Position numbers and translations under genes: made by a program
Notes under the pieces: model-generated
Databases searched by the model: none
The model's input: only the letters and a program-made list of their open reading frames with translations
Told to the model about the DNA's origin: nothing
Assembly (NCBI GenBank): GCA_030697795.1
Contig: JAUYOV010000004.1
Coordinates: 11,831 to 75,830 of the forward strand
Length of the DNA: 64,000 bases
Direction: 5' to 3'
Origin: a bacterium
GTDB taxonomy: Bacteria; Patescibacteriota; Minisyncoccia; JACQLN01
Shown: positions 19,080 through 35,990 of the stretch, in pieces
Layout of the letters: each line of letters starts with the position of its first letter
How positions within the stretch are numbered: the stretch's first letter is position 1

Positions 19080-19135
19080 AGTATAGTCTATATCATAACT
19101 CTTGTCAAGAGCCACCCTTAAAATCTCAAGGGTGG
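19080..19135 (-). promoter_or_regulatory. Conserved hairpin (CCACCCTTAAAATCTCAAGGGTGG) plus TTGACA-N18-TATACT promoter upstream of the GC-rich gene
   Basis: The same element recurs upstream of the second GC-rich gene (35935-35990). Confidence 0.5.
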
Positions 19136-19192
19136 GGTTGAAATCACTCATTTTTATTGACTATACTCAACAAAACTGATAAACTCTCGTCA

Positions 19193-19654
19193 ATGAAACT
19201 ATACGAACTATATACTGTTTTAAAACCATCTTTAAACGAAGATGGTCTCAATAAATTTGTTTCCGAAACAACCGAGGCCATGGCTAAAGGCGGTTTTGGA
19301 ATCACATTTTCTAAAATAAAATTGGGAGAATATTTGCCGTACCCTATAAAGCACTGTATTCAAGGTCATACCGTAGATCTGGAACTTTCCGGCGCAGAAG
19401 AAAGTGTTTTTCCTCCAGAAATTGAAATTAAATTACGCCACAGCGAAAATATTTTGCGCTACCTGCTTTTAGCTAAATCAGAAAAAATGTTAAAGAAAAC
19501 AAAACCCTTGCCTGTTTTTGAAGCACGCCCATACAGAACCGAAAGAAGACAATTACCTGTTTTAGAAACTGCTCCGATAGTTGTACAAAAAGAACCGCCG
19601 GTAGAAATTAATACAGAAGAAGTTGATAAAAAAATAGAAGAATTACTTAAATAG
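19193..19654 (+). CDS. rpsF: 30S ribosomal protein S6
   Basis: MKLYELYTVLKP start; rpsF-ssb-rpsR synteny. Confidence 0.85.
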   Translation: MKLYELYTVLKPSLNEDGLNKFVSETTEAMAKGGFGITFSKIKLGEYLPYPIKHCIQGHTVDLELSGAEESVFPPEIEIKLRHSENILRYLLLAKSEKMLKKTKPLPVFEARPYRTERRQLPVLETAPIVVQKEPPVEINTEEVDKKIEELLK

Positions 19655-19699
19655 CAAGATTAGCTTATTAGATCGTTAGCTTCCTAGAAAATTCCTAGA

Positions 19700-19729
19700 A
19701 AGCTAAAAGCTAAAAGCTAAAAGCTAAAA
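19700..19729 (+). repeat. (GCTAAAA)x4 microsatellite directly abutting the ssb start codon
   Basis: Perfect heptamer tandem; no SD present. Confidence 0.8.
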
Positions 19730-20227
19730 ATGAATCTTAACAAAATATTTGTCCTGGGCAATTTAACCCGAGACCCCGAGGTGCGTTCTCTGCCATCGGG
19801 CGGAAGCGTGGCCAGTTTTGCGGTAGCCACCAATAGAGTTTGGAATGATAAAAACGGGCAAAAACAACAAGACACCCAATTTCATAATGTTGTTGTATTT
19901 GGCAAAATGGCCGACATCTGCGCTAAATATCTTAACAAAGGCAAAATGGTTTTGGTGGAAGGCAGAATCCAAAACCGCAGTTGGGATGCGCCAGATGGCA
20001 CAAAAAAATATAGAACCGAAATCGTCGCCGAAGGCATTCAATTAGGGCCAAAAACAGCTGGCGAAACAAGCGGAGCAAGTTTTACATCTAATAGGCCAGA
20101 TACTCCCGTAGCCAATAAACCACAAGGACAAAACCAAAAAGCCGCCTCGCAGAATGCGCGGGAAGAAAATATACCTATAATAGAACAGGATGCGGAAGAA
20201 GTTGATATTTCGGATATACCATTTTAA
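19730..20227 (+). CDS. ssb: Single-stranded DNA-binding protein
   Basis: OB-fold N-terminus, Gly/Gln-rich tail, C-terminal DIPF. Confidence 0.9.
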   Translation: MNLNKIFVLGNLTRDPEVRSLPSGGSVASFAVATNRVWNDKNGQKQQDTQFHNVVVFGKMADICAKYLNKGKMVLVEGRIQNRSWDAPDGTKKYRTEIVAEGIQLGPKTAGETSGASFTSNRPDTPVANKPQGQNQKAASQNAREENIPIIEQDAEEVDISDIPF

Positions 20228-20322
20228 ACTGGATACTGGAAAGTAGAAGATGGTAGGTAGAGAATGTGGGGGTCAAAGATTTTCTCTGACTATAATCTGC
20301 TTTCTACACTCTAAAAATCTAA

Positions 20323-20565
20323 ATGTATAAACCACATACCAAAAAACAAAAGGTAGAAAAAAAACAGTGCTATTTTTGCACCAACGATATTGACGTTGTG
20401 GATTTTAAAGAAGCGGCTGGGCTTAAAAGTTTTTTAACCCATCAATATAAAATCGCTTCTAGAACTCGTACCGGCAACTGTTCTAAGCACCAACGCCGAG
20501 TGGCTAATGCCATTAAGCGGGCTCGCATCGCCGGCTTACTGCCGTTTACGCAACATAAAAGGTAA
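20323..20565 (+). CDS. rpsR: 30S ribosomal protein S18
   Basis: CYFC...KHQRRVANAIKRAR. Confidence 0.9.
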   Translation: MYKPHTKKQKVEKKQCYFCTNDIDVVDFKEAAGLKSFLTHQYKIASRTRTGNCSKHQRRVANAIKRARIAGLLPFTQHKR

Positions 20566-20576
20566 GCTTAATAAGT

Positions 20577-20617
20577 AAAATCCCGCATCTTTTTTAGTTA
20601 AAAAGGTGCGGGATTTG
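20577..20617. terminator. Bidirectional terminator hairpin shared by convergent rpsR and the sigma gene
   Basis: CCCGCATCTTTTTT/AAAAAGGTGCGGG stem with T/A runs on both sides; near-identical copy at 32749-32786. Confidence 0.6.
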
Positions 20618-20628
20618 TTTACACGAGA

Positions 20629-21495
20629 TTAAAAAAGAACTTCTAATTTATTTCTAGCAAAATGAGATCGAAGTTTACCTAAAGCACGTTCTTTTAGTTG
20701 CCGAATTCTTTCCCTTGTCAGATTTATATTTTCGCCTATTTTTTCCAAAGTTTGAGGCTCGGCGCCGTCCAAACCATGATAACGTTTTATTATATAATAT
20801 TCTCTGTCGTTTAAACACTCTCTTACAGCAACAAGAATGGCATGGCTTCTCTCCTTAATTTCAATACTTTCATCTGGCAAAGGGTCATCATCTATCAGGT
20901 TATCCAAAAAAGTCATGTTGCCATCATCATTTACTTCGTAATTTAGAGAAATGGGTTTCTGTGATATTTCTCTTAGGTCATCTATATCTTCTTTAGTTTT
21001 TAGTTCGCTTTCCGAAAGAATTTCTTCTATTTTAGGAATCCGACCTAATACCTGAACCAAACTCGCTTCAAGTTTATTTAATCTGTCTAATTCACCAATC
21101 TTATTTAACGGCAAACGAACAATGCGCGCATGCTCCGCAAGAGTTTGGAGAATTCCTTGCCTTATCCACCAAACTGCGTAAGAAATAAACTTAAAGCCTT
21201 TGTTACCGTCAAACCTTTGAGCAGCTGTAATCAAACCGCTATTACCAGCTTGAATTAGATCGCTAAGAGGCAAACCCTTGTTAATATATTTCTTGGCCAC
21301 ATCCACCACAAAACGAAGATTATTCTTAATTAGTTCGTTTAAAGCCTCTTCATCTCCAAGCTTTATAAGCTTGGCAAGTTCTTGTTCCCTTTCCGCTGGA
21401 AGACCTCCAGAGTTTTCTATATCACGAAAATATATATGAAGAAGATCAGAATTACCATCAAAAACACCCTCAATTGGATCGTCCCCACGAGACAT
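20629..21495 (-). CDS. Alternative sigma-70 family sigma factor
   Basis: Regions 2 and 4 (YAVWWIRQGILQ..., LEKIGENINLTRERIRQLKERAL). Confidence 0.8.
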   Translation of the reverse strand: MSRGDDPIEGVFDGNSDLLHIYFRDIENSGGLPAEREQELAKLIKLGDEEALNELIKNNLRFVVDVAKKYINKGLPLSDLIQAGNSGLITAAQRFDGNKGFKFISYAVWWIRQGILQTLAEHARIVRLPLNKIGELDRLNKLEASLVQVLGRIPKIEEILSESELKTKEDIDDLREISQKPISLNYEVNDDGNMTFLDNLIDDDPLPDESIEIKERSHAILVAVRECLNDREYYIIKRYHGLDGAEPQTLEKIGENINLTRERIRQLKERALGKLRSHFARNKLEVLF

Positions 21496-21601
21496 ATTAA
21501 CCTCCTTTTATTAAAGAACTATCTTTGGAAACAATGCCTGCATCTTAAAATAAAATCAAGCTATAGTCAAAAGCCCTGATTATTCTCGGAGCTTTTTTGC
21601 T

Positions 21602-22633
21602 TTAGGCTATTTGAGTTTCTATAGACTTCTTTTTTATTTCTTCCACTATTTCACTCGAGATTTTAATATTTTCTTTTAAATAAGCTACCGAGGCTTCGGT
21701 GCCTTGCCCTATTTTTTGCCCAGCATATTGATACCACGAACCAGATTTATCTAAAACGCCCAAGCGAACGCCGGTATGCAAAATGTCGGCTAAAGAAGCA
21801 ATACCTTGATTATACATAAGGTCAAATTCGGCCTGCCTAAACGGCGCTGCCACTTTATTTTTTACTACTTTCACGCGCACGCGGTTGCCCACAATTTCTT
21901 CTTTACTTTTTAATTGAGCAATACGGCGAATATCCATTCTTATAGAAGAAAAAAACTTTAAAGCGTTGCCGCCCGGCGTGGTTTCGGGGTTGCCAAACAT
22001 AACACCAAGCTTCATACGAATTTGGTTTGTAAATATAACAGTGGTACCGCTTTTAGCCGCAATGTTCGTAAGCTTGCGTAGTGCTTTAGACATTAACCTG
22101 GCTTGCAAACCCATCTGCATATCGCCCATCTCGCCATCTATTTCGGCTTGTGGCGTTAAAGCCGCCACCGAATCTACCACCACCACGCCTACTCTGCCCG
22201 ATTTTACTAAAGCCTCTACTATATCCAGAGCCTGCTCACCATTATCCGGCTGTGAAATCAAAAGGTTATCTGTATTAACCCCAATTTTTTTGGCGTAGTC
22301 TGGATCAAGCGCATGTTCCGCATCCACGAAAGCTGTTAAACTGCCGCGCTTTTGGGCTTCGGCCACTATGTGCAAAGTTAAAGTTGTTTTGCCAGAACTT
22401 TCAGGGCCATAAATTTCTACTATTCTGCCTTTGGGTATGCCACCTACACCTAATGCTAAATCTAAAGATATGGAACCAGTTGGTATGGCTTCCACATCTA
22501 CTTTAGGCGCGTCGCCCAAAGCCATTATGGCACCCTCGCCAAAACGCTCTCTAATTTCTTTGACTGTTTCCTGCAAACCTTTAATTGATGATTTTACTGA
22601 AATATTTTCCTCTTGAGTTATTTTTTTAGCCAT
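21602..22633 (-). CDS. recA: Recombinase RecA
   Basis: GPESSGKTT Walker A, full-length RecA. Confidence 0.95.
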
Positions 22634-22791
22634 ACTTACTAAATTTCGAAATTCGAATATCGAAATCCGAAACCCTACTTCGCTAAAGCTTCGTAGGGCA
22701 CAGCAATATCACTTATTTGGATTTGCTTGCCCGCCGTAGTTTTAACAGAGGCGGGTTTCGAATTTCTGATTTCGTGCTTCGAATTTTATTT

Positions 22792-23451
22792 TTAAGGATT
22801 ATAAGTTACGCGTTTAATTTCTTTATTTTCTTTTCCAAATCTGCTAACTGCTTTTATTTCGAATGTATTAATACCATTGAGCAACTCTATCTCTTTAACG
22901 AACGAGCCGTCTTCACCCGCAAAAATCGTTTCATTATTTATTGTTAAAACCGAATCCCGCGAAACCTTACCCTTAAATTCTAGCTTGGGATTATCCACAA
23001 TAGTATCGCTTTCAGTAGGATAGTTCAAATTTAAATCTGGTTTTTCTAGAATAACTTTAAACTGCCAGCCAATATAAAATAGCACAAAAACACCGACAGT
23101 ACCCAAAACAAGCCATCTAAAAGAAACTTGTTTTAAGAAATTTAGGCGGTTTAATATTTTATTTTTTGGTTTAGGCAAATCAACATAGCAAATTTGCTGC
23201 CACTCGTTTTCATAACGCAAAGCTAGCTCGTTTTCGTCTAGACCCACCACTTGAGCATATTTTTTTAAAAAACCTTTTACATAAACTCCCGAAGGCAAAT
23301 CGCACCACTCGCCTTTTTCAATTTTTTTTAAGTGCTTGGCCGGAATACCGGTCCTGGCTACTAAATCGCCAAAGCGAATTTTTAAAAACAGCCTACGTTC
23401 TGTAAGATAATCATTTAGTTTAAGATTGTCTTTGGTATAAGCGATGGGCAC
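22792..23451 (-). CDS. RodZ-like HTH (XRE) membrane protein
   Basis: N-terminal Cro/C1-type HTH, single TM, C-terminal beta-rich domain. Confidence 0.5.
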   Translation of the reverse strand: MPIAYTKDNLKLNDYLTERRLFLKIRFGDLVARTGIPAKHLKKIEKGEWCDLPSGVYVKGFLKKYAQVVGLDENELALRYENEWQQICYVDLPKPKNKILNRLNFLKQVSFRWLVLGTVGVFVLFYIGWQFKVILEKPDLNLNYPTESDTIVDNPKLEFKGKVSRDSVLTINNETIFAGEDGSFVKEIELLNGINTFEIKAVSRFGKENKEIKRVTYNP

Positions 23452-23604
23452 GTTACAAAATTAAAATTTAAATATAAAAATTAAAAATTATCGAGAAACT
23501 ATAAGATCAGACTAGCATCACAGAGACTAAGTATCAAGATAAACCTTATAAACTTTTCAAATATATTGTTAACACTTTTTGCCCGATCGAGGGGTGGTTG
23601 TTAA

Positions 23605-23645
23605 CAATAAAAAACCACTCTTCGATTAGACTCAGAGTGGTTTTA
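23605..23645 (-). terminator. Rho-independent terminator after ftsK
   Basis: AAAACCACTCT...AGAGTGGTTTT hairpin plus U-run. Confidence 0.55.
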
Positions 23646-23653
23646 AAAAACTA

Positions 23654-26044
23654 TTAGGAAAAATTTTCTTTGTTTTCCTCTTCTGTGTGTATATCTATAG
23701 CTTCTGGTGGAACTTCTGATTTTACTAAAACCTCTCTAGGTTTAGCCCCTTCACCGGGACCAATCATGCCTTGAGCTTCTAGAATATCGAGTAATCTTGC
23801 GGCGCGGGCGTAGCCGACTCTTAATCGTCTCTGGAGTAAAGAAGCCGAAGCTTTACCAGCCTGCATAATAGCTTCTTTGGCTTGGAGTAAAAGTTCATCT
23901 TCGTCACTAGAATCCATTTTATCAAAACTTACACCGGTAAGTATTGGTCTATGATCTGAGACAGCTTTTTCCAAACCAAGCGCTTCTTCTGGATTAGCAT
24001 CAGGCGCGTCTTCGGGTAGATTAGATCTTATAAACGAAACAACTTTTTTAACTTCTTTTTCCGAAACAAAAGTGCCTTGAATACGTTTGGGCTTGGGCGA
24101 ATCAGAAGTTACAAAAAGCATATCGCCCATGCCTAAAAGTTTTTCGGCGCCAGCCGAATCTATAATTGTCCGTGAATCTATTTGCGAAGCCACCGCAAAA
24201 GCTATGCGCGTGGTAATGTTAGCTTTAATTAAACCCGTAATAACTTCTACCGAGGGCCGCTGTGTGGCTAAAACCAAATGTATGCCCACCGCCCGCGCCA
24301 TCTGCGCTAAACGCACTACTGTAGCTTCTATTTCACGCCCGTAAGTAGACATTAAGTCGGCCAGTTCATCTATAATGATAACCAAATAAGGCATTAAATC
24401 GTCGCCTTTTTTAGCATCAACTTGAGAATTAAAACCGCCAATATCTCTAACTTTTTTTTCGGAAAGCAGGCTATATCTTCTTTCCATTTCTGAAGTCGCC
24501 CATTTTAAAGCCGACACCGCTTTTTTAGGCTCTACTATAACTGGGGTTAAAAGATGCGGAATACCATTATACAAAGTTAATTCAACTCTTTTAGGATCAA
24601 TCATTATAAAGCGTAAAATTTCTGGCGAATGTTGATACAGCAAATTAACAATTAACGAATTTATGGCTACGCTTTTACCCGAACCCGTGGCGCCCGCAAT
24701 AAGCAGATGAGGCATTCTGGTTAAAGCCGACCACATCGACCGGCCAGAAACATCTTTGCCTAAACCAATATTTAAAAAGTTTTTATGCTCCGAAGCCTCA
24801 AAACCCTGAAGCAAAGCTTTTAAACGCACCACCATAGATTTTTGATTGGGTATTTCTATGCCCACTAAAGATTTTCCCGGAATCGGCGCTTCTATTCTTA
24901 AAGATTCTCCGCCTAGGGCTAAAGATAAATCTTTTTGCAAAGCTAATATGCTAGCCAGTTTGACTCCAGTGGCTGGTTTTAAAGTAAACTGGGTTACCGC
25001 AGGGCCAATATTAACTTCCGACATTTCTACCGGAATATTAAAATTCTCTAAAGTTTTCTGAATAATTATGGCATTGCCCTTAATGTCGCCCGTCACCGGC
25101 ATAGAGCCTTCGTCTTCTAATAAATCTAATGGTGGAAATTTATAGTTAACGGAAAGTGGCAACACACTAAATCCGCTCGCCATATTTTCTTGTTTCTTTT
25201 TTGAAACCTCATCTGACTTGGCCATTACTGACGTACCTTGAGGAGAATTTATAGTGACAGTGTCTTCAGCCGGTTTGGGCGCTTCAACTTTTTTAGCGGT
25301 TTGAGGTAGTTTAGCTTTGCTGGCTAACGTTGCAATTTTAGTTACTAAACCTTTTTCTAAAACTAATTTTTTTTCTGGAATCATTTCGCCATTTTCGTCC
25401 GCCTTAAAAACAAATTTTTCTTTTATTTGATCTTTCAAAGGCAAACGAAAAACAATCAACATAGCCGAAAAGAAAAACGCCACAAAAAATATTAAAGAAC
25501 CCCAAAAACCAAACATCTGCCTAAACGGCCAGCCAAAATAATAACCCATTTTACCGCCAGCCTGATTTTGCGAAAATATTTCCATCAAGCCCAAAAAACT
25601 TAAAATTAGAACACTGCCCCCGATTATAGTGGAACCTAATATTTTTTTCTTGTCGGAAGTTAAAATAAAAAACGACATTAAAAACATCGTTAAAGGCACA
25701 AAGAAACTACCGGAACCAAACATATAATCGGCACCGGCTGTAATGGCTTCGGAAAAAGATCCCGACAAGCCAAAGAAAGCTAAGGTAGTTACCAAAGCCA
25801 CAGCCAGCAAAAGAACGCCCACTACGCTTCTTTTAACGCTTGATTCTAAATGGAGCCAAGAAGTTGTTCTTTTTGGCTTTTTTACTTGAGATTTTTTAAG
25901 ATTTTTAATATCCTCCTTTTCTTTTTCAGCAGGCATTAGGTTTAATCTATTACTAGAAAATAATAACATACAAAAAAGCCAAATAACAACAACGTTTTTC
26001 AGGAAGGGCGGTCCTTCCGATAGATTTCCTGCTATTTTTGGCAA
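23654..26044 (-). CDS. ftsK: DNA translocase FtsK/SpoIIIE; true start downstream of the ORF-track start, whose first codons overlap a REP
   Basis: GATGSGKS Walker A, C-terminal gamma wHTH domain, N-terminal TM segments. Confidence 0.9.
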   Translation of the reverse strand: MPKIAGNLSEGPPFLKNVVVIWLFCMLLFSSNRLNLMPAEKEKEDIKNLKKSQVKKPKRTTSWLHLESSVKRSVVGVLLLAVALVTTLAFFGLSGSFSEAITAGADYMFGSGSFFVPLTMFLMSFFILTSDKKKILGSTIIGGSVLILSFLGLMEIFSQNQAGGKMGYYFGWPFRQMFGFWGSLIFFVAFFFSAMLIVFRLPLKDQIKEKFVFKADENGEMIPEKKLVLEKGLVTKIATLASKAKLPQTAKKVEAPKPAEDTVTINSPQGTSVMAKSDEVSKKKQENMASGFSVLPLSVNYKFPPLDLLEDEGSMPVTGDIKGNAIIIQKTLENFNIPVEMSEVNIGPAVTQFTLKPATGVKLASILALQKDLSLALGGESLRIEAPIPGKSLVGIEIPNQKSMVVRLKALLQGFEASEHKNFLNIGLGKDVSGRSMWSALTRMPHLLIAGATGSGKSVAINSLIVNLLYQHSPEILRFIMIDPKRVELTLYNGIPHLLTPVIVEPKKAVSALKWATSEMERRYSLLSEKKVRDIGGFNSQVDAKKGDDLMPYLVIIIDELADLMSTYGREIEATVVRLAQMARAVGIHLVLATQRPSVEVITGLIKANITTRIAFAVASQIDSRTIIDSAGAEKLLGMGDMLFVTSDSPKPKRIQGTFVSEKEVKKVVSFIRSNLPEDAPDANPEEALGLEKAVSDHRPILTGVSFDKMDSSDEDELLLQAKEAIMQAGKASASLLQRRLRVGYARAARLLDILEAQGMIGPGEGAKPREVLVKSEVPPEAIDIHTEEENKENFS
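26000..26032. repeat. REP1 palindrome CAGGAAGGGCGGTCCTTCCGATAGATTTCCTGC at the 3' end of RAYT-1
   Basis: Further copies at 26526-26542 (inside RAYT-1), 26735-26750, 59691-59722; related sequence inside the helicase CDS at 12909-12941. Confidence 0.8.
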
Positions 26045-26706
26045 TCTTTATAGGAAAGCCAATCAAGAATAAAATCATCAAAGTCCTTTACACCGTCGAA
26101 ATAATCTGGAAAAGCTTTTTTGTTGATAATTTTTTGCTCTAATCTTTGAACACCTACATAATCAAGATAACTGGAATAATTATAACCATTTAAAAAATTT
26201 TGGGCCGCTAATTTATTTTTAATACCAGTTTCTTTCCAGTTAGGTTCAATCAACTTAATAGAATTTAAGTGTGTATAGGCAAAAATATATTTCAGATATT
26301 CATCTCTTTCAATATGTTTTGCTTGAAACCTTCCCTGAAATAAAGAACCGCTACGATCATGTCTTTTATTGAAATACATGGAATAACCGGTGGATACTTT
26401 TCCCATAAATTTAGAGAGTCCACCTTCTACAGTTTCTCTTGCAAGTAAATGGAAATGATTCGGCATTAATACATGTGCGCCTAAAGCAGTAATATCATCG
26501 CCAGTATTTACATCAAAAATATCTGGGAAGGACCGCCCTTCCAAAAGAAGCTCATTGATATCTACACGGTCATTGTTATTACAAAGATAAAGGAGCATCA
26601 AAAAACGTCTATATTCGCCTGTAGATTCAAATATAGTCCTCTTATCCACACCTCGATTGTAGATATGATAATATTCCCCTACAGAGAAAGTGAATTTACG
26701 TTGCAT
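26032..26706 (-). CDS. REP-associated tyrosine transposase (RAYT; IS200-like HuH Y1 transposase), copy 1
   Basis: GEYYHIYNRGV, HuH motif LMPNHFHLL, catalytic-Tyr helix region; flanked by REP1 palindromes. Confidence 0.7.
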   Translation of the reverse strand: MQRKFTFSVGEYYHIYNRGVDKRTIFESTGEYRRFLMLLYLCNNNDRVDINELLLEGRSFPDIFDVNTGDDITALGAHVLMPNHFHLLARETVEGGLSKFMGKVSTGYSMYFNKRHDRSGSLFQGRFQAKHIERDEYLKYIFAYTHLNSIKLIEPNWKETGIKNKLAAQNFLNGYNYSSYLDYVGVQRLEQKIINKKAFPDYFDGVKDFDDFILDWLSYKDCQK

Positions 26707-26766
26707 TCAATAATTATAATTCCTTAGGGTATTTATCGGAAGGGCGGTCCTTTTTAGGCCTAGGGT

Positions 26767-26795
26767 TTGACACAGGATTGGCTATGGTTTAGACT
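26767..26795 (+). promoter_or_regulatory. Putative sigma-70 promoter (TTGACA-N17-TAGACT) for the tRNA cluster, followed by a 15-nt tandem direct repeat at 26806-26835
   Basis: Hexamer match only; weak -10. Confidence 0.3.
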
Positions 26796-26840
26796 GATTT
26801 TTACTGTTCTTCATGATAAAGTTCTTCATGATAAATAAGT

Positions 26841-26918
26841 GTCGGGGGTAGCTCAATTGGTCAGAGCGGCTGACTGTGGATCAGACTGTGTCGGTTCAAA
26901 CCCGGCTCCCCGGCACCA
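26841..26918 (+). tRNA. tRNA-His (anticodon GTG) with G-1:C73
   Basis: Manual cloverleaf: G-1, acceptor TCGGGGG/TCCCCGG, D-arm GCTC/GAGC, anticodon loop CTGTGGA, T-arm GTCGG-TTCAAAC-CCGGC. Confidence 0.7.
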
Positions 26919-26927
26919 AAATTTAAT

Positions 26928-27013
26928 GGGCGTGCGGCTGAAAGGACTCCTCTGGACAGTTGGAGAAATCCGATTGAAGCTGGTGTCAGGAAATCCAGTC
27001 ACGCCCACCAATC
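26928..27013 (+). other. tRNA-like element (perfect 7-bp acceptor-type stem GGGCGTG/CACGCCC, terminal ACCA) with no canonical cloverleaf
   Basis: 86 nt between the two tRNAs. Possible degenerate class-II tRNA or tRNA-derived structured RNA; identity unresolved. Confidence 0.3.
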
Positions 27014-27017: not shown

Positions 27018-27123
27018 TCCGCGGTAACTCAGAGTGCTGACTTAAGGGCCGCAAGCCCCGGCCGGTTAGAGTGCCTAGCTGATAACTAGGAGGTCGTTGG
27101 TTCGAATCCAACCCGCGGAGCCA
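27018..27123 (+). tRNA. tRNA-Ile (anticodon GAT) carrying a ~31-nt hairpin insertion in the D-loop
   Basis: Acceptor TCCGCGG/CCGCGGA, D-stem ACTC/GAGT, anticodon arm CCTAG-CTGATAA-CTAGG, T-arm GTTGG-TTCGAAT-CCAAC, G73-CCA. Insert 27033-27063 AGTGCTGACTTAAGGGCCGCAAGCCCCGGCC. Confidence 0.5.
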
Positions 27124-28828: not shown

Positions 28829-28886
28829 ATTAATGAAATATTTTAATTATTTAGAAATCTTAGCAGGAAAAAATATAAATAAGCAA

Positions 28887-29681
28887 CTATTCGGAAATAA
28901 CTATAAAAACCTGTTTTAAATCCTTGGTATTAAAAAAGGGTCGCACTAAAGCTTTTTTAAAAGGAGCAGAATCACTGCTACTGACCTTGGTAACTTCTCC
29001 TACTAAAAAACCTCTTTCAAAAAAACCATCAAGCCCGGAACTCAAAAGAACTTGTCCGCTCCTTAATTCTGATTCTTTTAATACTAAATCTAAATTGAGA
29101 GCTCCGCTGGCCGAACCCGTTATCACACCCTTGGCTCCACCATCTTCCGAAACAGCCGTAACCTTGCTTTGGGCCGATGTTATTAAAATAATTCGACTTT
29201 CTTTAGCCAGAGCTTCTTTAACACGCCCCACCAAAATATTTCCCGAAAGAATAACCGAGTTGCCAACCTTAACACCATCTTTAGCGCCTTTGTTTACTAA
29301 TAAAGAATCTCCGGCTTGAAACGGATCCAGAGACAGGGTATCGGCCAAGATTATTTTTTTAGATTCTTTCTGGCCCAAACTTAAAGCTTTTCGCAAAAAA
29401 TCATTTTCTTCTTTTAACTGCAAAATTTTAAAATATTCTCCCCTGAAAAAATCCTTTTCACTTTTTAAAAAAATATTTTCTTTTATTAAATTTCTTACCC
29501 CAAAAACATTTTTAAATAAAAAACTGCTTTCTTCACCTATATAAAAAACTGATTTGGTGATGGGCGCCACGCCAAATCGGTTTAGCAAGTTTACTGAAAA
29601 ACTAAAGAAACCAGCTTTATCTAAAAAAAATAAGATGGTCGCCGTAAAAAGAGTTATAACAATTTTCTGCCAACTAGACAT
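28887..29681 (-). CDS. mreC: Rod shape-determining protein MreC
   Basis: Immediately downstream of mreB; N-terminal TM plus coiled-coil and beta domains. Confidence 0.65.
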   Translation of the reverse strand: MSSWQKIVITLFTATILFFLDKAGFFSFSVNLLNRFGVAPITKSVFYIGEESSFLFKNVFGVRNLIKENIFLKSEKDFFRGEYFKILQLKEENDFLRKALSLGQKESKKIILADTLSLDPFQAGDSLLVNKGAKDGVKVGNSVILSGNILVGRVKEALAKESRIILITSAQSKVTAVSEDGGAKGVITGSASGALNLDLVLKESELRSGQVLLSSGLDGFFERGFLVGEVTKVSSSDSAPFKKALVRPFFNTKDLKQVFIVISE

Positions 29682-29683
29682 AA

Positions 29684-30745
29684 TTAATCTTTCGGCGCAG
29701 TAGTGTAGTCCTTTGAGACTAAAAGTTCTCTATATTTTTCTGTATCTTCTAAAACTATACCCGTACCACGAGCCACCGCGGTTAAAGGATCATCGGCCAC
29801 TTTAACCGCAATGCCTGTTTCCTTGTTTATTAATTCATCTATGCCGCGCAGTAAACTGCCGCCGCCCGCTAAAACTATACCCCGCTTCATAATATCACCC
29901 AAAAGTTCGGGCGGAGTCTTTTCTACAATTTCCCTAACCATATCCACAATAGTTTTAACGGATGGTAATATAGCTTTTTTAACGTCTTTGGAAGTTATAA
30001 TAACCTCCTTGGGTAAGCCAGTTATTAAATCGCGCCCGCGCATAGTGGTTTCAAGTTTTTCACTTAAATCTATAACGCTACCCACTGCTATTTTTACCTC
30101 TTCGGCCGAACGAGGTCCTAAAAGTAAATTGTGGTCGTCGCGCGCCAATTGAATAATATCTTCATTTAGTTTTTCGCCCGCTATTCTTAAACTTCGCCCC
30201 GCCACTAAACCACCTAAAGAAATAACCGCTACCTCCGTGGTGCCACCGCCGATATCTACAATCATATTGCCCAAAGCTTCCTGAACAGGCAATCTGGCGC
30301 CTAAAGCCGCCGCCACAGGCTCTTCTATCAACATAACTTCTCTAGCGCCGGCATTGCGCGCCGCTTCTTCTACCGCTCTTTTTTCTACTTCGGTTACACC
30401 CGATGGAATTCCAATAACTACCCGAGGCCGAGGCACCATATAAAAAGACTCACCGTGAACTTTTTGGAAAAAATGCTTAAGCATCTGCTCGGTCACTTCA
30501 AAATCAGAAATAACGCCATTAGCCAAAGGTTTAATCGCTACAATATGATTAGGTGTTCGGCCCAACATTTTTTGGGCTTCTCGGCCAATAGCTAAAACCT
30601 GCCCTGTTTTTTTATTAACCGCAACTAAAGAAGGTTCGTTAACCACAATGCCACGATCCTTAACATAAATAAGGGTGTTGACTGTTCCCAGATCAACACC
30701 TATATCTTTAGCAAAATGACCAAAAAATTTATTCAGTAAATACAT
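29684..30745 (-). CDS. mreB: Rod shape-determining actin homolog MreB
   Basis: DLGTVNTLIYV..., full actin-fold motifs. Confidence 0.9.
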   Translation of the reverse strand: MYLLNKFFGHFAKDIGVDLGTVNTLIYVKDRGIVVNEPSLVAVNKKTGQVLAIGREAQKMLGRTPNHIVAIKPLANGVISDFEVTEQMLKHFFQKVHGESFYMVPRPRVVIGIPSGVTEVEKRAVEEAARNAGAREVMLIEEPVAAALGARLPVQEALGNMIVDIGGGTTEVAVISLGGLVAGRSLRIAGEKLNEDIIQLARDDHNLLLGPRSAEEVKIAVGSVIDLSEKLETTMRGRDLITGLPKEVIITSKDVKKAILPSVKTIVDMVREIVEKTPPELLGDIMKRGIVLAGGGSLLRGIDELINKETGIAVKVADDPLTAVARGTGIVLEDTEKYRELLVSKDYTTAPKD

Positions 30746-30841
30746 AACACAGAATTTCTAATTTCCAATATCTAAATCCTAAACAATTTCTAAATTCTAA
30801 TTTTCCAGAATATATTTGGAGCATTGTGATTTGAGATTTGT

Positions 30842-32128
30842 TTAGAGTTTAGTGCTTAGGATTTGGAGTTCGATTAGAAATTTTTCTAACTCTTTTAGTT
30901 TAACCATCTCCACTTTCTCGCTGGCGCGATTTTTGACCTCCACACTTTCTTGCGCCAAAGTTTTATCGCTAACTATTATCCGATATGGAATACCAATTAA
31001 ATCAGCATCCGACAACTTTACACCGGCCGATTCTTCGCGATCATCCCATAAGACGTCAAACGTCTTTAAAGATTGATACAGCTTCTCGGCTTCTTTCTTG
31101 GTATCGCCCAATGAAACTAAATGAATTAAAAACGGAGCCACGCTCTTTGGCCACTTCATTCCAGCCTCATCGTTAAAAACTTCGGCCAGCACTCCAACTA
31201 AACGGCTCATACCTATACCATAACTGCCTAAGTATGGCGGTTTATCTTTACCATCGGAATCTTTAAAATTAATCCCCATTTTTTCGGAATAAACTGTGCC
31301 AAATCTAAATATATTTCCAATTTCAACGGAACTAGCTTCTTCAACTTGTCCACCGCATTTTGGACAAGGATCCCCAATCTTGTGAGTATAAATTTCTTTG
31401 TTTTGCGCCCAATCACATTCGCCAGCCGGCGAATTGCAGAAATAAATATTATCTTCACCTACTGGGCTTACTAACTGAAATTCATGTGTATGACCCGAAG
31501 TAAACACACCGCCCGAAGCTTCAACCACCTTAACATCTTTTAATCCAACCCTGTTAAACACTCGTAAATAAGCATCTTTAACTTCCCAGTAAAATTTGTC
31601 TAGATCTTCCCCTGTGGTATGCAAACTATATAAATCTTTCATCATAAACTCCCGCCCGCGCAATAGGCCTGACTTAGCCCGAGCCTCGTTTCTAAACTTG
31701 GTAGAAAAGTGATAAAGCTTAATCGGTAAATTTTTATAGCTTAAAGAATTTTTCCTAACTACATCTAAAAATATTTCCTCGTGTGTAAAAGAAAGTCCAT
31801 ATTCTTTTTCGTCTACCGATTTAAACTGATACATTATCTGTTTAACATTTGGATCTGCCCAACGGCCGGTTTCATTCCAAACATCGCGAGGATGAAGTAA
31901 TGGCATTAAAACTTCGGCACTGCCAATAGCATTCATTTCTTCACGCACGATTTGTTCTATTTTTTGATAAACCCGCCAACCTAAAGGCAAAAAGGTGTAT
32001 GAACCCGCCATAAGCTTGTCTACAAAACCCCCACGCAAAAGCAACCTAGCATTAGTAGCTGTTTCGTCCTTTGGATCATCCCTGCGAGTGTTTATAAACG
32101 ATTGAGAGTAACGCATAAGAGTTATCAC
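30842..32128 (-). CDS. proS: Prolyl-tRNA synthetase (short form lacking the INS editing domain)
   Basis: MRYSQSF..LLRGG..YTFLPLGWRV..IVREEMN..G..EVLMP, closely paralleling E. coli ProRS motifs. Confidence 0.85.
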   Translation of the reverse strand: MITLMRYSQSFINTRRDDPKDETATNARLLLRGGFVDKLMAGSYTFLPLGWRVYQKIEQIVREEMNAIGSAEVLMPLLHPRDVWNETGRWADPNVKQIMYQFKSVDEKEYGLSFTHEEIFLDVVRKNSLSYKNLPIKLYHFSTKFRNEARAKSGLLRGREFMMKDLYSLHTTGEDLDKFYWEVKDAYLRVFNRVGLKDVKVVEASGGVFTSGHTHEFQLVSPVGEDNIYFCNSPAGECDWAQNKEIYTHKIGDPCPKCGGQVEEASSVEIGNIFRFGTVYSEKMGINFKDSDGKDKPPYLGSYGIGMSRLVGVLAEVFNDEAGMKWPKSVAPFLIHLVSLGDTKKEAEKLYQSLKTFDVLWDDREESAGVKLSDADLIGIPYRIIVSDKTLAQESVEVKNRASEKVEMVKLKELEKFLIELQILSTKL

Positions 32129-32316
32129 TAATATAGCTAATCGACGCTAATATAGCGAATTAATTTTTATTAGCTATATTCGCTTTCAATTCGCCATATT
32201 CGCGAAAAGTATTGATAGATTTTAACACCCCATTCAATGTCTGACAATTATTTTGACAAAAAACTATCTAGGTGTTAATTTATTAAAGTTCTTTAAACCT
32301 ATAAAAAGGAGAGGTT

Positions 32317-32745
32317 ATGCTTACCACTAGGCATGTAATAGGCTCAATGACATTGGAGTTGTGTCGGCTTTTGATTGAGTTAGACAGACTGTTTGTAGGC
32401 AATCTGGACGGATGGTTGCCCATAACTAGAATCGAATTAGAGTATATAAGACCAAAAAAGATACGCAGTCATACCAAAGACCTAAAAGTTAAGCTTCTGC
32501 CCGAAAATTGGCCAGTTGAATCGGAAATCTTCTGTAAATTATGTAAAACTGGAAATATCTGGAATGTTTGTGAGGTAACAATAAAAGCGCCTCATGTGCA
32601 CAGCTCGGAAATAGGCGGCATAGATATAGTTCTGCCGGTAATCGGTGGAAATATACTCTTGCCAAATGAGGTAGGATCCCCGAGTTCTGACGTGATAACA
32701 AACATAATGATTCAATCAAAACTCCGGAATAAGTTATACTCCTAA
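32317..32745 (+). CDS. Hypothetical protein
   Basis: ORF only; followed by a terminator. Confidence 0.4.
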   Translation: MLTTRHVIGSMTLELCRLLIELDRLFVGNLDGWLPITRIELEYIRPKKIRSHTKDLKVKLLPENWPVESEIFCKLCKTGNIWNVCEVTIKAPHVHSSEIGGIDIVLPVIGGNILLPNEVGSPSSDVITNIMIQSKLRNKLYS

Positions 32746-32748
32746 AAT

Positions 32749-32786
32749 GATCCCGCACCTTTTTAATTAAAAAGGTGCGGAATTTT
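32749..32786. terminator. Second copy of the CCCGCACCTTTTT/AAAAAGGTGCGG terminator hairpin
   Basis: Same stem as 20577-20617. Confidence 0.55.
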
Positions 32787-32789
32787 ATT

Positions 32790-32823
32790 TAGCATGAGCC
32801 ATGCGATCGCATGACTCATGCTA
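32790..32823. repeat. GCGATCGC-core palindrome TAGCATGAGCCATGCGATCGCATGACTCATGCTA (REP3 family)
   Basis: Family members at 50245-50280, 50896-50929, 52902-52931. Confidence 0.7.
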
Positions 32824-32862
32824 TTTTTTAAAAAAAGAAGAATATTTCTTCTTTTTTTAAAA

Positions 32863-33942
32863 TCAGAAAAATTTAACTATATCTTTCCAAGTTACAAAAA
32901 ACATTAGCGCGAGCAACAAAAGAAACCCTCCTATATTTACAGTATTTTCAAATTTTTGGCTTAAGGGCGAACCCTTAATTTTTTCTACTATTAAAAACAC
33001 TAATCTGCCGCCATCCAGCGCTGGAAAAGGCATAATATTTAGTATGGCCAAATTAACAGATAGTATGGCTACTAAATTTAATAAATAAACCATGCCCATG
33101 TTGTAAGCTTCGCCCGTCAAAGAAGCTATGCCAATGGGGCCAGTAATTTCACCCATAACTCTGCCTTCAATAAGTAAGGTTTTAAAAAACAAAAACAAAG
33201 CCGAGCCAATCACCCAAACCATAAAACCTAAATCTTTTAAACCACTCCATAAAAATAAATACCAGGGCGATTTAACTAAACCTGTTTTGGCCAGAGCCAC
33301 GCCCAAAGCGCCTTCACTTTGTGGAGGATTAACACGCGGGGTTATTTTAATATCTACATTTTCTTTGCCTCTTAATAAAACTAAATTTATTTCTTGACCA
33401 GCTTCGCCTTCTACAAAAGATTTAAATTCCGAAATTTCGGAAAATGTTTTTAAGGTGCCATCTGACAATTTTATGCCACTAATAGCATCGCCCATTTTAA
33501 TGTCTGCGTTTGACGCGGGAGAATTTTCAGCCAGAGCCGTAATTTGAATTTTAATATTTGTGGCCTTGGCACTATTGGTTTCGTCTAAAACCATCGGCCG
33601 GCCCATTAAATTTCCAAAACTTAAAAGCACATAGGCCAAAACTAAATTCATAAAAACACCAGCGCAAACTATCTTAACTCTTTTGGATATTTTAAGCGAA
33701 GAAAAACTACCGGCTTCGTTTCTGTGTTCGCCCGATTCACCAAATATTTTTACAAAACCACCAAACGGAATTAAATTAAAAGAAAAAACCGTCTCGCCTC
33801 TTTTTATAGAAAAAACCTTTGGCGGAAAGCCAAAGCCAAATTCTTCCACCTTGGCACCGGCCTTTTTGGCGGTTATGTAATGACCGTATTCGTGAACCAA
33901 AACCAAAGCAGATAATACGATAAAAAATACTAGGATAGTCAT
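32863..33942 (-). CDS. rseP: RseP-like site-2 zinc metalloprotease (M50) with PDZ
   Basis: HEYGHY HExxH motif, LDGG motif. Confidence 0.8.
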   Translation of the reverse strand: MTILVFFIVLSALVLVHEYGHYITAKKAGAKVEEFGFGFPPKVFSIKRGETVFSFNLIPFGGFVKIFGESGEHRNEAGSFSSLKISKRVKIVCAGVFMNLVLAYVLLSFGNLMGRPMVLDETNSAKATNIKIQITALAENSPASNADIKMGDAISGIKLSDGTLKTFSEISEFKSFVEGEAGQEINLVLLRGKENVDIKITPRVNPPQSEGALGVALAKTGLVKSPWYLFLWSGLKDLGFMVWVIGSALFLFFKTLLIEGRVMGEITGPIGIASLTGEAYNMGMVYLLNLVAILSVNLAILNIMPFPALDGGRLVFLIVEKIKGSPLSQKFENTVNIGGFLLLLALMFFVTWKDIVKFF

Positions 33943-34099
33943 AAATGTCTAATATCCAATTACTAATATCGAATCAATGACTAATTTATAAATGCCTAAT
34001 TTTGAATTTAGTTATTAGACATTGGGATTTGATTAGAAATTATCCCTCGATTGGGCTCGGGATCCTGAGCCTGTCGAAGGAGGTATTAGAAATTGGAAA

Positions 34100-34654
34100 T
34101 TAACTCATAAGCTCTTTTTCTTTTTTATTTTTTAAATCTTCCAACGCCTGATTATTTTCTTTCATCGCCTTTTCTATTTCATCCTTTTTTCTAAACTTAA
34201 TATCTTCCGATTTTTCTTGCTGAGCGCTTTTTACAGCCTCATCCCGCAACCTACGAGTTCTTATTTTTGCTTCTTCCAATTTTTGAGAAACAAGCTTTAT
34301 AAGTTCTTGCCTGCGTTCTTGAGTTAACTGGGGCAAACTTATTCTAATACTTTTACTGTCGGCAATTGGTTGAGCGCCAATATTAGCGTTAGTAATAGCT
34401 TTGGCTATCGGTTCTAAAGCGCTTTTATCCCAAGGCTCTACAACCAAAGTTCTGGCATCCAGCGAACTTATGCTGGCCATACCTTTTATTGGAGTTTTAT
34501 TGCCAAAATAATCAACCAAAATATCTTCCACCAAAGCCGGCGAGGCTCGGTTACTGCGTATTTTTGATAGTTCGCCCGTCAAAAATGTGGTGGCTTCTTT
34601 TAGCTTATTTTTAAAATCTTGCGTCTCCATAACAATAAAACCAGCATAACACAA
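34100..34654 (-). CDS. frr: Ribosome recycling factor
   Basis: Full-length RRF. Confidence 0.9.
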   Translation of the reverse strand: MCYAGFIVMETQDFKNKLKEATTFLTGELSKIRSNRASPALVEDILVDYFGNKTPIKGMASISSLDARTLVVEPWDKSALEPIAKAITNANIGAQPIADSKSIRISLPQLTQERRQELIKLVSQKLEEAKIRTRRLRDEAVKSAQQEKSEDIKFRKKDEIEKAMKENNQALEDLKNKKEKELMS

Positions 34655-34691
34655 AAAAGTCTAGATTATAAACCCTCTCGATTTATTCCCC

Positions 34692-34720
34692 ACATGTTCA
34701 ACATTCAATGTTGAACATGT
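34692..34720. repeat. REP2 palindrome ACATGTTCAACATTCAATGTTGAACATGT, left flank of RAYT-2
   Basis: Perfect palindrome; copies at 34901-34925 (inside the CDS) and 35390-35418. Confidence 0.85.
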
Positions 34721-34734
34721 TATAATTTTGATAT

Positions 34735-35391
34735 ATGAGAAAAACAATTTTGGCCGAAGGCGAATATTATCATATCTATAATCGTGGTGTAGAGAAAAGA
34801 AACATATTTTTAAACGATAACGATAAGTGGCGATTTATGACCCTCTTACTAATATTTCAAGGCAAGGGTCATATTGATAATATGCAACGTATTGTTAAAC
34901 TTGTTCAACATTCAATGTTGAACAAAGAACCATTTGACGACATCCTTTTGAATAAAAAGGTTGAACTGATATGTTTCTGTCTGATGCCAAATCATTATCA
35001 CCTTATATTAAAAGAAATTAAAAATGGAGGAATTTCTAGTTTTGGGCAAAGATTAGGTAACAGTTATACAAAATATTTCAACACTAAATATAAACGCACT
35101 GGACACTTATTTGGTGGAAGATTTCAAACGGTTCACATAACTCAAAATACATATCTCAAACATTTATCTTCTTATATACACAATAATCTAACAGAACTAA
35201 ATAATTGGAAAAAATTGGAAAACGAATATTTTTGGTCAAGTCTGCCAGATTATGTAAATAAAAACCGATGGGATAAGTTTCTAAACCCGGAAATAATTCT
35301 AAACCAGTTTAGGGGTAAAAATGATTATCTAAATTACATCAAAAATAATCGAAACAAAATTAAAAAACTAGATGGTTACTATATAGATTAA
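34735..35391 (+). CDS. REP-associated tyrosine transposase (RAYT), copy 2
   Basis: GEYYHIYNRGV, LMPNHYHLIL HuH motif; paralog of 26032..26706. Confidence 0.7.
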   Translation: MRKTILAEGEYYHIYNRGVEKRNIFLNDNDKWRFMTLLLIFQGKGHIDNMQRIVKLVQHSMLNKEPFDDILLNKKVELICFCLMPNHYHLILKEIKNGGISSFGQRLGNSYTKYFNTKYKRTGHLFGGRFQTVHITQNTYLKHLSSYIHNNLTELNNWKKLENEYFWSSLPDYVNKNRWDKFLNPEIILNQFRGKNDYLNYIKNNRNKIKKLDGYYID

Positions 35392-35418
35392 TTGTTCAAC
35401 ATTCAATGTTGAACAATT
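35390..35418. repeat. REP2 palindrome, right flank of RAYT-2
   Basis: AATTGTTCAACATTCAATGTTGAACAATT. Confidence 0.85.
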
Positions 35419-35431
35419 GGATCAGAGAGAT

Positions 35432-35470
35432 AATAAAAAGAGGCGTTCGATTAAGTCGAACGCCTCGGTG
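35432..35470 (-). terminator. Rho-independent terminator (GAGGCGTTCGA...TCGAACGCCTC plus U-run) ending the GC-rich small-gene transcript
   Basis: Strong 11-bp stem followed by a minus-strand TTTTT. Confidence 0.6.
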
Positions 35471-35647
35471 AGGATCTGCTTCCCCATGGCTCTCCATTTT
35501 TGATTCAATCGGTTCAAAAACGGGGACAAAAGACCTTTTCGTAGTGTGGTTTAAGTTACCAACTTCGTCGCATTCCTCTCACCTCCTTTCGTACACGCCG
35601 CTTGGTTTTCTCCAGAGGCGGCGGCCGAAGTTACCAGCTCACAGAGC

Positions 35648-35872
35648 CTATTTCTTGTTTCCCATCATGGCTTTGGCGGTCAGCAGACCAACGAAACCGG
35701 ATCCCACTCCCACCATCATCCATAACCCCATAGGCACAGGGTCTGGATGGGAATTGAATGAAGCCCCCAAGGCGATGCGTATATCATTCCCGATCTGGAA
35801 ACCAAACTGCACCGCCATTACGCTGAAACCCGCCGTCAGAATCGACGCGAAAAACATGATTACCTTTCTCAT
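35648..35872 (-). CDS. Small glycine-zipper membrane protein (74 aa) in a GC-rich island; start at MRKV
   Basis: GC ~50% island 35430-36000; SD GAAGGGG; two TM helices with GxxxG repeats. Confidence 0.45.
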   Translation of the reverse strand: MRKVIMFFASILTAGFSVMAVQFGFQIGNDIRIALGASFNSHPDPVPMGLWMMVGVGSGFVGLLTAKAMMGNKK

Positions 35873-35934
35873 TTTTTCCCCTTCTAAAGGGTTAAGAGTA
35901 TTTGTTAGTGTACTATCCTTTTCTAGCCTGTCTC

Positions 35935-35990
35935 TATCATAGCATAGTCCAATATGGCTTGTCAACCCCGCTCTTGAAATCTCAAGGGCG
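35935..35990 (-). promoter_or_regulatory. Second copy of the conserved hairpin (CCCCGCTCTTGAAATCTCAAGGGCGGGG) plus TTGACA element, upstream of the GC-rich small gene
   Basis: Aligns with 19080-19135 (ATAGTC...CTTGTCAA...CCnCCCTTnAAATCTCAAGGGnGGGG). Confidence 0.45.

Follow-up and report, generated by a model that had tools for sequence, protein, structure and literature searches.

A conserved GC-rich palindrome at promoter edges of a Patescibacteria genome and its relatives

The stretch of DNA analyzed here, referred to as the window, is 64,000 nt long (assembly GCA_030697795.1, contig JAUYOV010000004.1, positions 11,831–75,830 of the forward strand) and comes from an AT-rich groundwater Patescibacteria genome (Patescibacteriota, Minisyncoccia, JACQLN01). 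Its GC content is about 37%, with two sharp GC-rich patches at 18.0–19.0 kb and 35.5–36.0 kb. The first patch, island 1, carries an open reading frame (ORF) at 18174–18995 between rpsF and dnaG; the second, island 2, carries one at 35648–35872 between a gene for a BNR-repeat protein and frr. A first-pass annotation, made from the letters of the window alone, placed both ORFs correctly and was also right about their compositional excess: GC is 56.6% and 50.7%, and GC at third codon positions (GC3) is 0.68 and 0.64, against 0.26–0.38 in frame-checked neighboring genes of the window. At the upstream edge of each island, a GC-rich palindrome lies next to the −35 box of a promoter. The family of these two copies is called type A and is the subject of this report; type B is an unrelated 15-bp palindrome, GCCAGNTNANCTGGC. 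The features around the two copies are as follows, with promoters scored as matches to sigma-70-like hexamers out of 12.

19112–19137, no strand assigned: type-A palindrome of site 1, reading CCCCACCCTTGAGATTTTAAGGGTGG on the minus strand, between two divergent −35 boxes
19080–19108, minus strand: island-1 promoter, TTGACA(19108)-N17-TATACT(19080), 11/12
19138–19167, plus strand: divergent rpsF promoter, TTGAAA-N18-TATACT, its −35 touching the other foot of the site-1 palindrome
35966–35993, no strand assigned: type-A palindrome of site 2, reading CCCCGCCCTTGAGATTTCAAGAGCGGGG on the minus strand, 28 bp, flush with TTGACA
35936–35965, minus strand: island-2 promoter, TTGACA(35965)-N18-TGcTATGAT(35936), 11/12, with a TG-extended −10
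36006–36035, minus strand: canonical terminator behind the upstream BNR-repeat gene, AAGCCTCTTAAAATGAGGTTTTTT, 13 nt before the site-2 palindrome

Read toward the island gene on the minus strand, site 1 is CCCCACCCTTGAGATTTTAAGGGTGG-ctc-TTGACAAG, with a 3-nt gap (CTC) between stem and −35, and site 2 is CCCCGCCCTTGAGATTTCAAGAGCGGGG-TTGACAAG, with a gap of 0 nt. The 17-mer AAATCTCAAGGGYGGGG occurs at 19121–19137 and 35977–35993 of the plus strand and at no third position of the window even with two mismatches. Its chance expectation in the window is 0.01, and none of 100 shuffles gave two matches; the hairpin with its −35 is thus a real shared module in front of two unrelated cargos, as the annotation had proposed. 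Site 1 forms a 10-bp stem on the minus strand (−7.6 kcal/mol), and as single-stranded DNA both palindromes fold at −7.6 to −13 kcal/mol, with z = −3 to −6.4 relative to shuffles. The similarity of the two sites covers about 37 nt (CCCC...TTGACAAG; 30/37, or 81%, by hand count on the alignment) and then fades, falling to 75% identity over 64 aligned nt, so that a shared signal of about 55 nt is too long an estimate. The alignment of the 5′ arm missed one difference, CCACCCTT versus CCGCTCTT. The spacers are 17 and 18 nt rather than 18 and 19; the second promoter is therefore not the weaker one, and both score 11/12. Only three promoter-like sites of at least 11/12 exist in the 64 kb, and two of them are the island promoters.

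Comparison loci are metagenomic contigs (L001, L004, L010–L014, L016, L017, L020–L022, L030 and L031), those for island 2 being fetched beside homologues of the upstream BNR-repeat gene. The island-1 promoter is kept in L001, L004 and L031, and its back-to-back layout with the rpsF promoter also in L031 and L001. The island-2 promoter is kept in L012 and L013 (N18-TATGAT) and, as N17-TATTAT, in L017 (spacers counted by hand). The surroundings of the two sites differ. Site 1 lies between divergent genes. At site 2 the upstream gene is co-directional and has its own canonical terminator between gene and palindrome; this terminator is kept in L011, L013 and L014 and is lacking at the empty site of L030.

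The palindrome recurs outside the window's genome; the annotation had suggested a search of genome and metagenome. A metagenome scan gave two true matches, in L010 and L011, and further copies lie in L016, L020 and L031. The count, window included, is nine type-A copies from six or seven related metagenomic genomes (L011 and L031 stem from a single metagenome and may belong to one organism); every copy is intergenic and touches a promoter. Arms of 11–12 bp surround a centre of 4–6 bp in the consensus, CCCCGCCCTTGA - short loop - TCAAGGGCGGGG, and most copies span 28 to about 31 bp. Loops range from 3 to about 35 nt, the longest being found in one copy, and the half-site span varies accordingly among 28, 30, 31 and 58–60 bp. 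Upstream flanks are variable (e.g. TTTTTG, TTTTAG and CTCAAAA) before CCCC..., and ...GGGG is followed by TT. Six copies (window sites 1 and 2, L031, L011, L010 and the first L016 copy, L016a) run into TTGACA or TTGACT at 0 nt, or 3 nt at window site 1. The other three (L020 and the second copies of L011 and L016, L011b and L016b) are followed at 0 nt by TTTGTGYTATKCT, 20–25 nt ahead of a start codon. We read TTTGTGYTATKCT as an extended −10 promoter, with the 3′ foot of the palindrome abutting its T-rich stretch. These copies stand before frr in L020, before an M50 peptidase gene in L016 and at the equivalent position behind island 2 in L011, where the following ORF does not read like frr. 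Stem pairing is kept in 93.8% of cells across the type-A copies, and both site-1 orthologues (window and L031) carry a compensatory change from a G-C to an A-T pair.

One comparison copy heads a unit of a different kind. In L010 (4349–4845), a groundwater contig of about 45% GC, the palindrome with TTGACT-N18-TATTTT precedes a unit of about 440 nt without a convincing ORF, in which a Shine-Dalgarno sequence is followed by AUG-GGC-UAG and then a terminator.

Could the likeness of the two window sites be accidental, or come from flanking DNA that was trivially duplicated? In unrelated GC-rich terminators, stems of the CCCCGCCC/GGGCGGGG type are common, which explains the matches in Planctomycetes and Myxococcales and among high-GC phages. 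IMG/VR and the GTDB species-representative genomes, among which the window's genome is not included, were scanned for the exact motif and gave only such chance matches, in unrelated GC-rich organisms and with no hairpin or no AT-rich context, and a general stem pattern in IMG/VR matched only ordinary terminators of high-GC phages. Against this explanation stand the low expectation in the window, the recurrence of inner stem and loop at orthologous as well as non-orthologous promoter edges, and the flanks of the window copies, which are otherwise unrelated. We consider it extremely improbable. The duplication of flanking DNA that the annotation had named as its own refutation is likewise contradicted by the copies in related genomes.

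Comparison of orthologous promoters separates the palindrome from what it adjoins. The L031 copy is the orthologue of site 1, and the first L011 copy (L011a) is the orthologue of site 2. Between conserved flanks, the latter matches the reverse complement of window site 2 exactly, and the former shows two differences from window site 1 if inverted and four if not. Thus, at orthologous promoters type A is inverted (L011, L031), replaced by type B (L001, L012, L017) or absent (L004, L013), while promoter and cargo persist. Compared with the empty site of L013, L012 and L017 show a duplication of TTGA, the two copies lying on either side of type B. It follows that the palindrome is a discrete and dispensable unit and not a part of the cargo: it is invertible and replaceable, sits at a fixed position relative to the promoter and is not specific to GC-rich cargo. 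The idea of one hairpin type per genome at both promoters, as for a co-evolving operator, is not upheld, since L012 has type B at site 2, whereas the L004/L030 genome, whose BNR-repeat protein is 98.7% identical, has no hairpin at site 1 and an empty site 2.

From this anatomy and distribution, and from the gains, losses, inversions and kept pairing, we infer a role in termination or insulation and a spread as a repeat. We tentatively prefer to regard type A as a boundary hairpin, similar to repetitive extragenic palindromes (REPs) and coupled to promoters, which would act as a terminator or insulator; the chance that this is right is somewhat below even. In these Parcubacteria/Patescibacteria genomes the clade-specific family sits just upstream of promoters, its 3′ foot abutting either the −35 hexamer TTGACA or, at extended −10 promoters, their T-rich stretch. 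In the window, each of the two copies stands at the upstream border of a self-contained unit with a strong promoter, a cargo and an intrinsic terminator, and in both units the cargo is GC3-rich and hypervariable. The stem-loop would halt or stall polymerases coming from outside and would have DNA in common with the promoter's upstream portion. The palindrome would have spread and been retained as a repeat, being copied, inverted via its own arms and gained or lost as a unit, and both sites would then be alike through repeat propagation and not because the cargos came on one vehicle. Since loop length and orientation are variable, it is the stem rather than the loop that matters, and since the element is swapped or missing at orthologous promoters, it is a discrete add-on.

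The nine copies at promoter edges, including those of ordinary genes (frr and the M50 peptidase gene), argue for such a boundary hairpin, as do the kept pairing and the high stability of the stems. So do the L020 and L016a copies, which have T-rich tails, each being the only hairpin behind its upstream gene and each passing the terminator scan, the former with a 14-bp stem and the latter on the minus strand. A known parallel is the promoter-coupled intrinsic terminator, in which the DNA of the stem-loop overlaps the −35 or borders it directly on the upstream side, with a T-tract immediately ahead of the −10 (Fletcher ... Grainger, bioRxiv 2026, 10.64898/2026.08.19.745784). Both window sites, L010, L011, L016a and L031 agree with this arrangement in their gap of 0–3 nt to TTGACA, and a T-rich tail immediately ahead of the −10 is found only in the copies with TTTGTGYTATKCT (L020 and, as read, L016b and L011b). 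In contrast to these terminators, the window copies read (CTC)TTGACAAG after the stem and have no U-tract, one conserved stem sequence is reused at many loci and genomes, one window copy lies between divergent promoters, and several copies lie behind a separate canonical terminator.

Several observations weigh against a boundary hairpin of this kind. The TTGACAAG that follows the window copies provides only two U, and neither copy is called as a terminator. Site 1, lying between divergent promoters, has no upstream gene to terminate, and site 2, L011a, L011b and L016b stand just behind canonical terminators and would be redundant as terminators. The known density is only two copies per 64 kb. 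Finally, the arms are near-invariant across non-orthologous loci of genomes whose neighboring BNR-repeat proteins are just 57–71% identical; a plain structural terminator should drift more, which points to sequence-specific recognition or ongoing copying.

Sequence-specific recognition is what would be expected if the palindrome were the operator of a dimeric regulator or a nucleoid protein that co-regulates the units, acting at site 1 on both divergent promoters. The strong conservation of the arm sequence across loci and genomes suits an operator, and so does the fixed place beside the −35, where activators and repressors bind, with site 1 lying between two −35 boxes. Terminator palindromes can also double as transcription-factor sites, as for LexA at yobI/ruvA (10.64898/2026.08.19.745784). 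However, the half-sites lie at varying distances from each other, and the compensatory change at site 1, being symmetric, is better explained by a stem than by a pair of half-sites. Orthologous promoters have either no palindrome or an unrelated one of 15 bp with another centre, and no regulator emerged as a candidate. We find an operator rather unlikely.

The cargos bear on whether the two sites came on one vehicle. Island 1 comprises the following features in addition to its promoter.

18174–18995, minus strand: island-1 coding sequence, a 273-aa orphan, GC 56.6%, GC3 0.68, with a ribosome-binding site
19030–19054, minus strand: 25-nt block of the 5′ untranslated region (UTR), GGCGGCGACGGCCTATGACGGTCGC, stem GCGAC/GTCGC
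18126–18153, minus strand: intrinsic island-1 terminator, 12-bp stem followed by TTTATTTATT

Searches of Pfam, NCBIfam, PHROGs and PADLOC gave nothing for the protein. Among 5.8 billion proteins it has three homologues, and a profile search of 1.8 billion yields eight representatives. Its AlphaFold2 model is poor (pLDDT 55), and a Foldseek search of the model against the PDB gave nothing at E ≤ 0.001. All four homologues with fetched context (window, L001, L004 and L031, the last contig holding only rpsF and the start of dnaG) lie between the divergent rpsF-ssb-rpsR and dnaG-rpoD. The four genes have GC of 54–60% and GC3 of 0.67–0.79, compared with a GC3 of about 0.28–0.38 in neighboring genes. 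The proteins are 42–60% identical, against 87–91% for full-length dnaG (in L031, 92–99% over the N-terminal 68 aa), and the promoter and 5′ UTR are 84–87% identical at the nucleotide level, against 63–67% for the coding sequence. The block at 19030–19054 is identical in the window, L001 and L004, whose proteins are 45–60% identical, and in L031 a compensatory substitution has turned the G-C pair at the foot of the stem into C-G; the block is a candidate regulatory hairpin or operator. The 5′ UTR has no Rfam match. A spurious ORF over an RNA is ruled out by the conserved ORF length, the ribosome-binding site and the alignment of the protein across homologues.

The annotation had called both genes foreign by composition and suggested a common vehicle. 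Island 1, however, is no recent import, as it holds the same place, rpsF / gene / dnaG, in four genomes. It is resident, hyper-divergent and rich in GC3, and its high GC3 may be sustained by repeated replacement of alleles from a GC-rich source, by biased gene conversion where recombination is frequent, or by selection.

Island 2 has a different composition.

35648–35872, minus strand: island-2 ORF, 74 aa, hydrophobic, GC 50.7%, GC3 0.64, an orphan and variable cargo
35467–35640, minus strand: structured-RNA-like block, GC-rich and modular, the constant part of island 2
35556–35592, minus strand: strong Shine-Dalgarno sequence GAAAGGAGGTGA inside this block, followed by a mini-ORF of 5 codons, MRRSW and stop
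35440–35466, minus strand: intrinsic island-2 terminator, 11-bp stem followed by TTTTTATTAT

The 74-aa ORF finds only itself among 5.8 billion proteins and, like the island-1 ORF, nothing in the four family databases; by eye, its sequence resembles a two-helix membrane protein. The spacer between the BNR-repeat gene and frr contains island 2 with differing small ORFs in the window, L011 (93 aa, Cys/His-rich), L012 (75 aa and about 66 aa), L013 (75 aa) and L017 (66 aa), and island 2 without an ORF in L014. It is empty in L030, L020, L021 and L022, and has an unrelated AT-rich 76-aa ORF in L016. The small membrane ORFs were considered as homologues and rejected (17–20% identity, the three hydrophobic ones being not alignable). 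Between L012 (2394–3355) and L030 (11137–11204), whose BNR-repeat proteins are 98.7% identical, the whole island of about 900 nt is present in one and absent from the other; island 2 is therefore accessory, with gain or loss at the strain level. It also occupies the same BNR/frr spacer across lineages in which the BNR-repeat protein is only 66–69% identical.

The long GC-rich 3′ region with its terminator, which had stood out at first reading, is a conserved structured-RNA-like block (fold z = −3.8 against shuffles). There are six homologues, which share exchangeable modules as a mosaic; outside the window they are at 1430–1742 in L011, 3040–3320 in L012, 4215–4525 in L013, 9300–9500 in L014 and 2385–2690 in L017. 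Compensatory pairs occur in the 5′ helix and in an internal helix. Window and L014 share 94% identity in the block, against 70% in the adjacent gene. Island 2 is either exchanged between lineages or under very strong constraint. No Rfam 15 family passes gathering or E-value thresholds in the block, only tRNAs pass in the window, and there is no credible sub-threshold match for block or hairpin in the window, L010 and L011. In IMG/VR, neither the RNA core nor the island-1 UTR block was matched by anything except plain ribosome-binding sites with ATG. All six homologues keep GGAGG/GGGGG, an AUG or GUG, 3–4 further codons and a stop. Since length and residues vary (MRRSW, MRSS, MRKR, MRER, (V/M)REL), a conserved peptide is rejected; the element may be a ribosome-binding stabilizer or a start-stop element. 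The main product of island 2 is probably an RNA and not the 74-aa ORF. In its own promoter and terminator and its conserved helices, the block resembles non-coding RNA candidates from GC-rich intergenic regions of AT-rich bacteria (PMC6429828, PMC8723152, PMC11109978), and it differs from them in consisting of exchangeable modules, in its conserved Shine-Dalgarno sequence and mini-ORF and in belonging to no Rfam 15 family.

A further possibility, which we consider unlikely, is that the palindrome is an attachment or recombination site of small promoter-carrying cassettes. Self-contained units of promoter, GC3-rich cargo and terminator would be inserted or exchanged there, in the manner of integron attC sites, Xer/dif modules or the hairpin ends of IS200/IS605. 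Two units are bracketed on both sides by type-A palindromes, island 2 in L011 (1021–1048 and 1742–1801) and a GC-rich unit in L016 (8647–8677 and 9497–9530), and the island-free BNR-frr spacer of L020 has a single copy at the position of the second L011 palindrome. The strain-level presence and absence of island 2, its occurrence in one spacer across distant lineages, and the 94% RNA beside a 70% gene fit such cassettes as well. So does the architecture of 11–12-bp arms around a 4–6-bp centre, in which the whole hairpin can invert, as does type B between the duplicated TTGA in L012 and L017. On the other hand, the 3′ ends of both window islands are free of a second palindrome and even of a relic half-site, and L012, L013, L014 and L017 lack a 3′ palindrome too. 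Island 1 is fixed at its locus in four genomes, copies stand before housekeeping genes, and in L004 and L013 the hairpin is missing while the cargo stays. The flanking genes are conserved enough for homologous replacement of the whole spacer to explain presence and absence. There is no linked recombinase, the only nearby HUH gene (Y1_Tnp, 34735–35391) being flanked by a different palindrome, and no viral copy was found in IMG/VR.

The unit of L016 (8647–9530) holds an orphan 218-aa gene (8789–9445; GC 57%, GC3 0.72) between frr and the M50 peptidase gene, with L016a in front of it and with its own 11/12 promoter and terminator. By comparison, it is a homologue neither of the island-1 protein nor of Y1. 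As a compositional outlier beside the motif, it is what the annotation had suggested seeking; the motif also stands before ordinary genes, however, as described above for the frr position of L020 and L011 and for the M50 peptidase gene of L016.

A bolder form of the cassette explanation, which strikes us as decidedly doubtful, is that the palindrome is the recombination site of a so far undescribed hairpin-bounded mini-cassette system of Parcubacteria, made of promoter-carrying units of about 0.6–1 kb with GC3-rich orphans or modular RNA. Units would be inserted, exchanged and inverted at the palindromes and would move between lineages. This would explain the bracketed L011 and L016 units, the strain-level variation of island 2 and the 94% RNA beside a 70% gene.

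Integron attC sites are defined by the core sites R″ (RYYYAAC) and R′ (GTTRRRY), a length of 57–141 nt and extrahelical bases. Like attC sites and Xer-dif modules, type A is a hairpin-forming imperfect palindrome that borders small accessory units, two of them on both sides. Unlike attC, its foot G/TTGACA fails GTTRRRY, it is 28 to about 31 nt long, and its stems are perfect or near-perfect. The units differ from integron cassettes in having their own 11/12 promoters and housekeeping genes as neighbors, with no integrase or Xer link seen. Judged by eye, the palindrome is not similar in sequence to E. coli dif. No integrase lies between the islands among the ORFs readable by synteny with L004/L030 and L016, which are housekeeping genes, although not every window ORF was domain-searched. 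The common vehicle or attachment signal proposed at first thus stays a minority explanation, since the motif is neither specific to compositional outliers nor tied to cargo, island 1 is resident and no IMG/VR phage matches; a plasmid vehicle was likewise not found, though plasmid collections were not searched.

Returning to the boundary hairpin, the palindrome shares with REP elements, bacterial interspersed mosaic elements and REPIN-RAYT systems (PMC3333891, PMC3733652, PMC8049555) that it is a short (20–40 bp) GC-rich imperfect extragenic palindrome, dispersed in both orientations and gained or lost as a unit, and a Y1 (IS200-like) gene is present in the window as in REPIN-RAYT systems. Unlike REPs, it has no GTAG or CGTC head and only two known copies per 64 kb, the window being part of a contig of at least 278 kb, and strict juxtaposition to promoters is not a REP hallmark. 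Unlike in REPIN-RAYT systems, the Y1 gene of the window is flanked by the AT-rich TTGTTCAACATTCAATGTTGAACAA and not by type A. Putative mobile promoters are stretches of 50–100 nt upstream of non-homologous genes with at least 80% similarity (Matus-Garcia et al. 2012, PMC3488235). The type-A sites likewise place similar upstream sequence before non-homologous genes within and across genomes, but over a shorter stretch, and the shared part is mainly hairpin and −35, not the whole promoter. GC clusters and hairpin elements of AT-rich organelle genomes (e.g. PMC2800124) are also intergenic GC-rich hairpins in compact genomes, acting as selfish or structural repeats; their hosts and sequences are different, and they are not tied to promoter edges. 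The palindrome is closest to REP elements and promoter-coupled terminators and fails defining features of each.

Other repeats accompany these features. The Y1_Tnp ORF (34735–35391, plus strand) is IS200-like/RAYT-like (Pfam E = 1e-9), and TTGTTCAACATTCAATGTTGAACAA occurs just before, inside and at the end of it, at 34692, 34899 and 35390. The region 34692–35415 has the island-2 terminator on one side and the frr promoter on the other, and orthologous loci lack the ORF; gene and palindromes look like a REPtron-style insertion. We also considered the type-A hairpin as the end of an IS200/IS605-type element with an adjacent Y1 gene and rejected it, as Y1 has its own palindromes and is missing from L011, L012 and L017. 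Degenerate copies of the AT-rich Y1 palindrome (TGTTAAACA.../ATTCAACAC...) lie at 18021–18046 and about 18095–18125, between the island-1 terminator and dnaG. That this family occurs 3′ of both islands is probably the coincidence of a dispersed repeat. A dispersed repeat of 58–86 nt, GAGCAGCATTATGGAGAAGACTA...AAAGAGGCTCCATATCGTCTGCGAG, has four copies (5190–5275, 8283–8340, 9711–9796 and 37986–38043). AT-rich intergenic repeats of the AATTTCTAATTTCCAATATCTAAAT kind are found at 30753–30882, 33944–34041, 39084–39206 and 62242–62292, and the corresponding spacers of sister genomes hold versions particular to each lineage. The repeat CAGGAAGGGCGGTCCTTCCGATA(G/A)ATTTCCT has two copies, at 26000–26045 and 59691–59736; a related GGAAGGGCGGTCC stretch, not a third copy, lies just upstream of a promoter-like site at 26767, ahead of tRNA-His. 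A weak second tRNA is indicated by Rfam at 27049–27119 on the plus strand (30.1 bits, gathering score 29), where ARAGORN reports none.

Both islands are sharply defined hypervariable loci, one an orphan gene with an invariant 5′ UTR hairpin and the other a modular RNA that may be swapped between lineages. Should type A prove to be a boundary hairpin, it would be a natural case of terminator-promoter coupling in which the stem is a propagated repeat, a useful and moderate addition; should it serve cassettes, it would represent a new cassette-exchange system. Patescibacteria are uncultivated, and almost nothing is known of how they delimit transcription units or move accessory genes. A conserved palindrome flush with promoters offers a concrete and testable boundary element in these organisms.

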